Shown piece by piece: positions 17,081-18,928 of a stretch of DNA of 64,000 bases. The notes under the pieces were generated by a model. The model saw only the letters and a program-made list of their open reading frames with translations, was not told the origin of the DNA and made no database searches. The stretch is from Acinetobacter phage Ab1-TPeters. Position numbers and translations under genes: made by a program. The stretch's first letter is position 1. Each line of letters begins with the position of its first letter. The stretch is taken from the sequence record PP763253.1. One strand, given 5' to 3'.

Positions 17081-18394
17081 ATGAATAACCGTATCAACCT
17101 AGTATTAAGCGTAGCTCGTGATTCAGACATCCGCAAGACTACCAATGGGGAAGTAACTAACATCGGTTTATATAATTTTAGATTCAAAGAGCCTGTTCCA
17201 TTTGAGGGTGGATTATTCTGTCAAAAGATTTTTGGGCCAATCAAAGACTACACTTGTGCATGCGGTGCACGTAAAGGTGGTAAGACAGTTGATGGTAAAG
17301 CACCATCTTGCGAGATCTGTGGGGTAGATCTAGTGAAGTCTGAGGTTCGTTCAAAACGTGAAGGTTATATTGATGCGAAAGTACATTATGTAAATGCATA
17401 TGCAATGCCACTCTTGGGTGCAATTCTTCAAATTGGTGAGGGTAATATTGAAGGAATATGCAATGGTACTATGTATTTCCGTTTTAAAGAATCAATGAAC
17501 GGTCTTCGTTCAATGTCTGGTAAGTTTTATTCAATTGAGCTATCAAAAGAAGACAAGACTTGGGGTACTTCTGCTGAGGAGCTCCTGGATGCAATTCAAG
17601 ATCTTGATTTGGATTCTGCTTACATTATGAAGAACTGCAATAGCCGAGACGTGAATCGCTATCACGATAAGGGTTACACTATTTCAGACTTCTTCTGCTC
17701 TCACGTGCGAGTGTCCCCTCCACGTACTCGTGATATGTCCGTAGTAAATAAGGATATATCATTTCACCCAGTAAACAACATCTACGCTCGTATCGTTCGA
17801 ATTGGAGCACGAGTAGCAACTTTAACCAACCAGATTCTGGAATATGATGGTGAGTTAAACTTAGAGCAATTAAAACAAGTGATTCGTGGTGAATCAATTG
17901 TGCTCCAAGCGCTAATTGATGCCTTGTTGTTTAAAGGAGCTACAGATTACCGTGGAAATGAGATTCCATCAGTTATCTCTTCACTTGGAGGTAAGGAAGG
18001 TATCGTCCGTGGTAACTTACTGGGTAAACGAGTTGACTTCTCTGGTCGATCTGTGATCATTTCCGGACCTGAACTTCCGTTAGATACAATCGGTGTTCCT
18101 TGGAAAATGATGTATGAGTTGCTTAAGCCGTTTATTCTGAATAAGCTAATTGAGCATCTTGAGGATCTTGATGGTATTTTAACCAGCCAGACTTTGAAGA
18201 AAGCTCGAACTATGTATGCTAACAAGAGCACAGAAGCAATGATGTTTATGCGAGAGTTAGCAGACAGACACTGGGCATTCTTGAATCGTGCACCGTCACT
18301 TCACAGATACTCAGTAATGGCGTTCAAAATACAGCTTCACAGTGGTAAAGCAATTAAGCTGCCACCTATGCTTTGTTCACCATTCAACGCGGAT
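17081..18394 (+). CDS. multisubunit RNA polymerase beta-prime N-terminal segment, exon 1
   Basis: Colinear with bacterial RpoC residues ~1-460. The Zn ribbon is YTCACGARKGGK...CEICGV. Other matches are NLLGKRVDFSGRSVI, LNRAPSLHR and PMLCSPFNAD. The reading frame stops right after NAD, inside the NADFDGDQM motif. Confidence 0.8.
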
Positions 18395-18754
18395 TAATCC
18401 CAAGCAGAGTCCGCCCAGATTAGAAATGATTTGGACAAAAACTTCCTTAATTGCTGGAACGTCCTTAATGGATAATCAGCAGCTGGGTTCAATTATGAAC
18501 AGAGTTCAACGACTATCGAAAGCCGATTTAGAGTGGGGACAATCTAAATTGAAGCAAGTAGAGTACAGCCAAGCGGTAGGTTGTTACGTGGAATGGCGTA
18601 ACAATAATTCCTTTAAATGGAAACAGGAAGACCTAATCACTGTAGACCACAGTGTAAGGATATGAGATAGTCTCAACGTTCTATAGTAATATAGAGCAGT
18701 GTTTATAGCCAATAAACACGGTCGTAAGCTAGCGATTTACGATGAAGATAATTG
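18395..18754 (+). ncRNA. group I self-splicing intron (ORF-less, IA-like) interrupting the beta-prime catalytic motif
   Basis: P is AATTGCTGGAA (18449-59) and Q is AATCAGCAGC (18474-83); these form P4. R is GTTCAACGACTA (18504-15) and S is AGATAGTCTC (18665-74); these form P7. The internal guide GTCCGC (18409-14) pairs with the exon end GCGGAU, including a U.G pair at the splice site. The intron ends in G, immediately before exon 2. Confidence 0.85.
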
Positions 18755-18928
18755 TTTGATGGGGATCAAATGGCAATTCACCTTATTCTTAGTTGTCAAG
18801 CAATGGATGAAGTCGAGTTCATTCGTGTTCAGAACAACCGTATGAATTCTATTAACTGGGATACACCTTTACTCGCTCCGAGCCATGAGCAGATTGTGGG
18901 CTTACTTGAATTAACTTTGGGCGAATAA
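18755..18928 (+). CDS. RNA polymerase beta-prime N-terminal segment, exon 2
   Basis: Translation FDGDQMAIHLILSCQAMDEVEFIRVQNNRMNSINWDTPLLAPSHEQIVGLLELTLGE continues the NADFDGDQMAVH...PSQD(M/V)VLGLYYLT region of RpoC. There is no start codon. The stop TAA at 18926-28 overlaps the RBS of the next gene. Confidence 0.75.
   Translation, partial: FDGDQMAIHLILSCQAMDEVEFIRVQNNRMNSINWDTPLLAPSHEQIVGLLELTLGE

Follow-up and report, generated by a model that had tools for sequence, protein, structure and literature searches.

A stretch of 64,000 nucleotides (nt) from Acinetobacter phage Ab1-TPeters (sequence record PP763253.1), referred to below as the window, carries at positions 17081 to 18928 a gene which, as judged from sequence comparison, encodes the N-terminal half of a bacterial-type RNA polymerase (RNAP) beta-prime subunit, with the Zn ribbon, the clamp and sigma-docking helices and the catalytic double-psi beta-barrel. 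A group I intron splits the gene, and the identity of both the protein and the intron is practically certain. Comparison with related phages indicates that there are two kinds of non-jumbo phage with a bacterial-type beta-prime, one with its own beta subunit and one with none, and that Ab1-TPeters falls in the latter. In the explanation which we find best as a whole, and to which we give slightly less than even confidence, the intron-split N-half would act with a C-half encoded elsewhere in the genome and with the beta subunit of the host. The gene is composed of the following parts.

17081..18394, + strand: exon 1 of the beta-prime N-half, 438 codons, with the Zn ribbon, the clamp helices, NLLGKRVDFSGRSVI and LNRAPSLHR, terminating in ...SPFNAD

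18395..18754, + strand: group I intron of 360 nt (Rfam RF00028) without a homing-endonuclease open reading frame (ORF)

18755..18928, + strand: exon 2 of the beta-prime N-half, 57 codons and TAA, reading FDGDQMAIHL...PSHEQIVGLLELTLGE and completing the catalytic Asp triad and the barrel

The 438 residues encoded by the ORF at 17081-18397 end in ...LCSPFNAD, with TAA directly after it, while at 18755 beta-prime picks up again in a different frame (FDGDQMAIHLILS...PSHEQIVGLLELTLGE, with the end LELTLGE) and runs to the stop TAA at 18926-18928, which gives a spliced product of 438 + 57 = 495 amino acids (aa). The original prediction of a spliced protein of about 496 aa, colinear with the N-terminus of RpoC, was borne out: in blastp residues 9-492 of the product aligned with residues 22-514 of E. 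coli RpoC at 31% identity (E = 2.8e-63). Since this alignment spans the full length of the product, the similarity to RpoC is not limited to a motif; limitation to a short motif was an outcome which the same prediction had named as refuting it. The profile search for Rpb1 domains which it had proposed placed both families above their Pfam cutoffs: RNA_pol_Rpb1_1 in exon 1 (4.5e-11, 43.1 bits against a cutoff of 39.7) and RNA_pol_Rpb1_2 across both exons (3.9e-23, 83 bits against 25.3), exon 1 covering profile positions 1-140 and exon 2 going on with 141-163. Every motif quoted earlier (the Zn ribbon, NLLGKRVDFSGRSVI, LNRAPSLHR, NADFDGDQM) was found again. All four cysteines of the Zn ribbon CACG...CEICG (C70, C72, C85 and C88 in E. 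coli) are invariant in an alignment of six sequences, and NLLGKRVDFSGRS, NRAPSLHR and the catalytic aspartates are conserved as well. The best matches in a PDB search were bacterial beta-prime subunits (6e-62) and also the cyanobacterial gamma subunit (3e-57), and there was no jumbo-phage subunit among the 60 best matches; the protein is, on these comparisons, much closer to bacterial beta-prime than to the jumbo-phage subunits.

Full-length relatives were found by tblastn in Ralstonia phage RP13 (171 kb, 8e-92) and Escherichia phage EP_H11 (111 kb, 8e-83). The product from Ab1-TPeters ends at about residue 514 of the E. coli protein, some 50 residues past NADFDGD, and residue 517 (of 517) of the RP13 homologue aligns to position 18919, residue 521 (of 522) of the EP_H11 homologue to 18925. 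Since the homologues end at the same place, the position of the split, after the barrel, is fixed in the lineage. The earlier observation that the similarity stops just past the catalytic loop was correct, and exon 2 carries the natural end of the polypeptide.

The intron was recognized by a match to RF00028 at 18385-18696 (66 bits against a gathering score of 50, E = 1.6e-14, full model positions 1-253), the sole Rfam match in the whole window, and its fold scores z = -6.0 relative to shuffled sequences. Its P1 helix is GCGGAU(U)/(A)GUCCGC with U18394 in a U-G wobble at the 5' splice site, and its terminal base is G18754, followed by TTTGATGGGGAT (TTT GAT GGG GAT); from this wobble and this terminal G the bounds 18395-18754 were derived. 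The junction 18394/18755 is confirmed by the intronless homologues, which bridge it exactly: in RP13 ORF144 residues 4-462 correspond to 17102-18394 and residues 463-517 to 18755-18919, gapless across the junction, and the same is seen with EP_H11. The NAD codons lie at 18386-18394 and the FDGD codons at 18755-18766, so that NADFDGD is contiguous only when the intron is removed. The intron starts with TAA directly after NAD, translation of unspliced RNA stops there, and the active protein therefore depends on splicing; the product of unspliced RNA would be dead, and splicing would restore NADFDGD. The group I intron and the intronless homologues together support the earlier statement that the product requires splicing. 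In the list of ORFs there was none of homing-endonuclease size wholly within the intron.

The same NAD|xDGD position is interrupted in two further members of the family. In Vibrio phage 150E35-1 beta-prime is broken at ...AACGCTGAT|TAACC and resumed at ...CCATG|CATGATGGCGAT, that is, at NAD|HDGD, by an insertion of about 1 kb (L004 21345-22352) that contains a 250-aa ORF of a multi-copy mobile family and the group I core motif AAGATATAGTCC. An Rfam scan of this interruption called no intron, and its group I-like character is suggested by the similarity of the junction and the core motif. The other case is a contig from Logan (L012, SRR29792786, 6428-9109), where an 893-aa beta-prime N-half carries an HNH-domain intein at exactly the site of the Ab1-TPeters intron (PFNAD|C...VHN|CDGD). 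The family-A DNA polymerase on this contig also has an intein. By blastn the Ab1-TPeters intron resembles other phage group I introns, including one in g145, the virion beta-prime N gene of phage AR9, which contains two group I introns and in its annotation is joined from three pieces, with two endonucleases of the introns. Like the phage group I introns of the T4 td, nrdB and sunY type and like inteins, it is a self-splicing element placed in the most conserved codons of a gene for an essential nucleic-acid enzyme; it differs from the T4-type introns in that it lost, or never had, the homing-endonuclease ORF. The catalytic loop of an RNAP beta-prime as a target site is documented here only through database records.

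Further relatives detected by tblastn were vB_EcoM_IME392 (116 kb), ten Rhizobium phage records (4e-64 to 7e-64), among them RHph_TM30, classified in the Kleczkowskaviridae, and Vibrio phages. The genomes of the nearest relatives measure 111-171 kb. The N-half proteins of RP13 (ORF144, BCG50162.1, 517 aa), EP_H11 (WBU87656.1, 522 aa) and IME392 are 38% identical to the Ab1-TPeters protein along the whole length and stop at the same C-terminal position. Their genes are intronless, with a C-half about 1.6-3 kb away, which in RP13 and EP_H11 is a separate protein of 486-504 aa, whereas Ab1-TPeters has the intron and no C-half within 75 kb. The RP13 and EP_H11 C-halves match Pfam Rpb1_3, Rpb1_4 and Rpb1_5, and the C-half alignment contains the bridge helix, the second Zn site, the trigger loop and region H; the N- and C-halves together therefore constitute a minimal complete beta-prime. 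In the Rhizobium and Vibrio phages both halves are fused in one polypeptide, as in EVB93_327 of RHph_TM30 (1127 aa); this protein and that of Vibrio phage 150E35-1 belong to the same beta-prime clade at 31-35% identity.

The order of the replication genes is also shared with the relatives: a large family-A PolA, an orphan gene designated here X, beta-prime N, PolX, NAD-ligase, ThyA-like, primase, helicase and ParM-like genes. The gene set of the RP13/EP_H11 clade that also occurs in the window comprises the large PolA, PolX, NAD-ligase, ThyA-like and dCTP or dCMP deaminase genes, and the replication genes shared with RP13, EP_H11 and IME392 are PolA, PolX, NAD-ligase, ThyA-like and ParM-like genes. 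Phages of the RP13/YerA41/SP-15-like group are characterized by hypermodified thymidine (PMC12686479), and the shared replication synteny places Ab1-TPeters among them; EP_H11 encodes a 5-hydroxymethyldeoxyuridine (5-hmdU) DNA kinase. By its gene content the phage is a myovirus of the RP13/EP_H11 group. There was no near-identical DNA among the GenBank phages searched and no close relative in IMG/VR. The beta-prime proteins of RP13, EP_H11 and IME392 have been annotated by similarity only and no functional study of them was found, so the gene is a new member of an annotated and unstudied beta-prime family of thymidine-hypermodifying myoviruses.

The immediate neighbours of beta-prime N are the following.

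16493..17074, + strand: X, a conserved beta-prime companion of 193 aa with homologues near beta-prime in the relatives

18939..19292, + strand: ORF of 117 aa, 10 nt downstream of beta-prime, not conserved beside beta-prime in the relatives and probably co-transcribed with it

Homologues of X stand 0-2 genes from beta-prime in EP_H11, in the Logan contigs L016 and L012, in Rhizobium phage RHph_TM30 and in Vibrio phage 150E35-1 (upstream in the latter two), and two genes downstream of beta-prime C in RP13 (ORF152); IME392 has X nearby as well. The Ab1-TPeters protein matched X of EP_H11 (6e-8), X of L016 (5.5e-6) and Rhizobium EVB93_325 (1.9e-5). The family measures 190-250 aa in the clade and is rare: 1.84 billion representative proteins contain about 35 clusters of it. 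It is predicted to be mainly helical with one beta-hairpin, and comparison with the relative L098 indicates purifying selection, with a nonsynonymous divergence (dN) of 0.26 and a synonymous divergence (dS) of 3.5. No sigma Pfam family was found in 34 members of the X family even at E <= 1, hhalign gave a probability of 0.1% for X against four sigma factors, and the PDB profile search with X was negative. X may be a specificity or assembly factor.

Hidden RNAP subunits were sought in the ORFs at 16493-17074, 18939-19292, 19373-19603, 19606-19950 and 21008-21871, and these candidates were rejected because Pfam and PHROGs were negative for each of them; the beta-prime neighbours in EP_H11 and RP13 were likewise negative for RNAP subunits in both databases. 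The original prediction that the flanking genes show no similarity to beta, beta-prime C or omega is in agreement with these searches. Its further suggestion, that the neighbours are highly diverged partners, holds in so far as X accompanies beta-prime throughout the clade; X itself, however, is not beta, beta-prime C or omega, and the downstream ORFs are lineage-specific orphans. The split-gene relatives all have a member of a second orphan family, Y (208-281 aa), directly behind the beta-prime C-half; neither Pfam nor PHROGs gave a match to Y, and the window lacks a homologue of it. The members of Y are located as follows.

L001 (EP_H11) 10439-11125; L002 (RP13) 17702-18349; L016 5354-6022; L015 2655-3281; L012 11565-12410: Y, directly after the beta-prime C-half

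The search for the missing half of beta-prime covered the window and 11 kb of flanks, about 75 kb in all. The flanks come from three Logan contigs (SRR28813070) and comprise about 10 kb downstream, with SMC-like, 5'-3' exonuclease and GyrB genes, and 1 kb upstream. Neither beta, nor the beta-prime C-half, nor any sigma family gave a Pfam match in the window ORFs of at least 65 aa and the downstream-flank ORFs of 143-408 aa. An unfiltered beta-prime C hidden Markov model (HMM), applied to the six-frame translation of these 75 kb, reached E 3.4 at best, against 5e-225 for the EP_H11 control. These negative Pfam and HMM results agree with the earlier statement that there is no beta or beta-prime C partner in the 64 kb. 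Protein searches for beta-prime C returned other phages' copies only, and the three hits looked up came from other samples. In all relatives beta-prime C, separate or fused, is at most 5 kb away from the N-half. Its presence in every relative leads us to consider it likely that a C-half exists elsewhere in the Ab1-TPeters genome, and to this extent the view that the remaining subunits are encoded elsewhere in the genome probably stands; as regards beta it is opposed by the nearest complete or near-complete genomes, EP_H11 and RP13, which have no detectable beta.

The same absence might be read differently, namely that beta-prime N is not part of an active polymerase and is either a decoy that sequesters host beta or sigma or a relic left after the loss of beta-prime C. 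That beta-prime C was not found within about 75 kb, though adjacent in all relatives, would fit with this, as would the order PolA / X / beta-prime N without the block of beta-prime C and Y, unlike in EP_H11. The gene itself argues the other way: it has an intact ORF, no catalytic or Zn-binding residue has been lost and the splice-site features of the intron are correct. Moreover, relative to L098, which is 77% identical and has the same order PolA / X / beta-prime N, dN of beta-prime N is 0.20 and dS is saturated, a sign of strong purifying selection. By this measure the gene is not decaying, and a decoy or relic appears very improbable.

The absence of a beta subunit was followed across the clade. 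E. coli RpoB found nothing below E = 1 in the complete EP_H11 genome by tblastn, and RpoC matched both halves there (6e-34 and 1e-25). No Rpb2 family was detected by Pfam in the 85 EP_H11 ORFs of at least 140 aa, where for 65 of them, scanned as a batch, the best 25 of 45 families, to E = 2e-5, were considered; two direct scans were clean. An unfiltered beta HMM, constructed from the E. coli and YerA41 sequences, gave nothing in EP_H11, in 169 of the 171 kb of RP13, or in the window plus flanks; its validation came from 75 mReC-type loci in IMG/VR, where it scored 244-294 bits on the beta gene directly downstream of beta-prime. X is present in none of these 75 beta-containing loci. The ten beta-prime-bearing Rhizobium records were absent, by per-organism counts, from the GenBank-phage tblastn matches to E. 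coli RpoB or YerA41 beta. Downstream of 18928 none of the ORFs resembles Rpb2, unlike in the mReC and YerA41 type, where beta directly follows beta-prime. Alpha and omega were not detectable in the complete EP_H11 genome or in 99% of RP13, both of which have the two beta-prime halves. Without beta and with X, the clade departs, so far as these searches reach, from every described phage multisubunit RNAP.

The original prediction favoured an enzyme encoded completely by the phage, of which beta-prime C and beta, in one or more pieces, would lie in the part of the genome not seen here; YerA41, the mReC phages and the jumbo phages are the models for this. In YerA41, a phage of the same hypermodified-DNA group, the genes for beta-prime N, beta-prime C and beta follow one another, and its RNAP subunits were found in the virion (PMC7354516); the 75 IMG/VR loci with beta just downstream of beta-prime point in the same direction, and only about 75 kb of the Ab1-TPeters genome is visible. 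On the other hand, its beta-prime N is closest to those of RP13 and EP_H11 (38% identity), with which it shares X and the end point and whose genomes are without beta, whereas the beta-containing lineages are without X and in YerA41 beta-prime is split about 100 residues later. We consider such a complete phage enzyme unlikely, if by no means negligible.

It is also conceivable that a phage equivalent of beta has diverged beyond sequence recognition, maybe split among orphan ORFs such as X, Y and others. Some partners in jumbo-phage polymerases, for example phiKZ gp68, indeed have no recognisable similarity (PMC7824862), and X, as well as Y in the relatives, is conserved beside beta-prime without a family assignment. 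Such a divergence would be hard to reconcile with the good conservation of beta-prime (31% to E. coli), since the barrel motifs of beta are normally at least as conserved; X, predicted to be mainly helical with its 193 aa, is not a beta-barrel, and EP_H11, RP13 and the window have no large orphan family in common that accompanies beta-prime. This makes a cryptic beta improbable. Three individual candidates for it were examined and rejected: RP13 ORF156 (762 aa) is an orphan, a 483-aa family of EP_H11 travels with PolA, and a 303-aa family of EP_H11 is a multi-copy mobile ORF.

A hybrid with host beta is favoured because EP_H11 and 99% of RP13 contain both beta-prime halves and no detectable beta, alpha or omega. 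In this mechanism the N-half would pair with a C-half, carrying the bridge helix and the trigger loop, encoded elsewhere in the genome. An active enzyme would further need a beta subunit with the second barrel, and the phage beta-prime (N and C) would take the place of host beta-prime on the host alpha2-beta, and also omega. X might act as an assembly or promoter-specificity factor for the hybrid, which would transcribe the bulky thymidine-modified phage DNA. On our analysis this pairing of phage beta-prime with host beta is a possibility which we prefer only tentatively. Extended to the clade, it would mean that RP13, EP_H11, IME392, the Kleczkowskaviridae, some Vibrio phages and Ab1-TPeters bring beta-prime and X only and form a hybrid with host alpha2-beta, X being possibly sigma-like; in this general form it is, if anything, slightly more doubtful.

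Several points weigh against the hybrid polymerase. No precedent for a hybrid phage-host polymerase or for a beta-prime-only phage was found in the literature. Such a hybrid would require a pool of unbound alpha2-beta of the host to be available during infection. In the related phages YerA41 and Carin-5 a beta gene of their own stands directly after beta-prime. The lack of beta-prime C within 75 kb of Ab1-TPeters, unlike in every relative, is unexplained, and neither a single-sequence nor a 13-sequence-profile protein search returned a beta-prime C from the same sample. Both beta and beta-prime C may lie outside the visible 75 kb, and the absence of beta was judged by sequence methods, to which a strongly diverged beta could be invisible.

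When compared with known systems, the gene shows partial likeness to several. The original prediction saw in it a fit with the split RNAPs of the jumbo-phage type. Beta-prime is indeed split after the catalytic barrel in the jumbo-phage enzymes (phiKZ, AR9/PBS2; Sokolova et al. 2020, PMC7598289) as it is here, the likeness being one of region. The kinship was not supported, given the bacterial matches in the PDB search and the lack of a detectable beta in the window plus flanks, in EP_H11 and in 169 kb of RP13: the jumbo-phage subunits are far more diverged, their beta is phage-encoded and split, and their genomes exceed 200 kb. YerA41, Carin-5 and the metagenomic mReC Caudovirales (Weinheimer & Aylward 2020, PMC7481178) are, like Ab1-TPeters, non-jumbo phages with a bacterial-type beta-prime, and the first two belong to the hypermodified-thymidine phage group; they differ in having beta just downstream of beta-prime and no X, and YerA41 also in its recognisable sigma factor. 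The cyanobacterial gamma (RpoC1) and beta-prime (RpoC2) subunits represent another division into two genes after the catalytic barrel. Gamma, however, is a cellular protein of about 625 aa with its own beta; the match ends at its residue ~521, and the phage split lies about 100 residues earlier.

A repeat motif around the locus may be a phage promoter or regulatory site. It consists of two ..AAA(A/G)(C/G)CTGTT boxes about 24 nt apart, then GGGG, and is found at the following sites.

16386..16434, + strand: repeat motif (..CTGT..N..GCTAAAACCTGTT..N6..GGGG) upstream of X, exact 13-mer copy

19291..19341, + strand: second exact copy, just after the block of X, beta-prime N and the 117-aa ORF

1776-1788, 3131-3185 and 16298-16340, + strand: further repeat-motif sites

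The exact 13-mers stand at 16410 and 19315, and there are six more copies at up to two mismatches, which gives 8 matches against 2.4 expected; none of 100 shuffles reached 8. The motif brackets the block of X, beta-prime N and the 117-aa ORF and also precedes other early-region genes. Promoters of the sigma-70 type around the beta-prime locus were not above chance.

A number of other features of the window were recorded. At 21868-23432, 7430-8479 and 24390-26759 a cluster of sugar-nucleotide and nucleotide-pool genes encodes cupin/GPI-like, cytidylyltransferase-like, HAD/phosphomannomutase-like, ThyA-like (349 aa), 3'-5' exonuclease, NUDIX and dCTP-deaminase-like proteins; its predicted functions agree with a thymidine that is hypermodified and possibly glycosylated, like that of SP-15, YerA41 and Carin-5. 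The window, unlike EP_H11, showed no 5-hmdU kinase. An actin-like ParM/Alp7A homologue (ALP_N, MreB-like_C) lies inside the replication module at 23449-24390, with ParM-like counterparts annotated in RP13 (ORF17) and Vibrio phage 150E35-1. The family-X DNA polymerase at 19960-20691 has HHH_8, palm and thumb domains, and a small ORF with the HHH_8 domain only stands beside ribonucleotide reductase genes at 58130-58465. The minus strand at 27363-56989 holds a myovirus structural module with sheath, baseplate J, gp25-like, a baseplate injector OB domain (Phage_base_V) and a DUF4815 protein of 1021 aa; several large proteins there, of 442, 477, 519, 599 and 698 aa, had no Pfam match. The GC skew changes sign where the gene orientation does, at about 27-28 kb and about 57 kb. 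EP_H11 carries a full BCCT betaine/choline transporter gene (L007 8174-9556, Pfam 1.6e-91), which is unusual as cargo in a lytic phage.

The exact NAD|xDGD site appears to have been struck by three different selfish elements, namely an intron without an ORF, an intron with one and an intein, which makes it a clean case in which mobile elements have converged on the codons most conserved in an essential enzyme; in Ab1-TPeters the intron makes the expression of a polymerase subunit dependent on splicing. Rifampicin binds beta, hence a hybrid with host beta should stay rifampicin-sensitive, while a fully phage-encoded enzyme would not, and the idea is directly testable in the E. coli phages of the clade, EP_H11 and IME392, which are in culture. 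Phages are known either to redirect the host RNAP by small factors or to supply an entire polymerase themselves. If the hybrid polymerase is real, subunit replacement would be a third strategy, a mode of host-polymerase takeover not described before, and it would bear on how bulky thymidine-modified DNA is transcribed.

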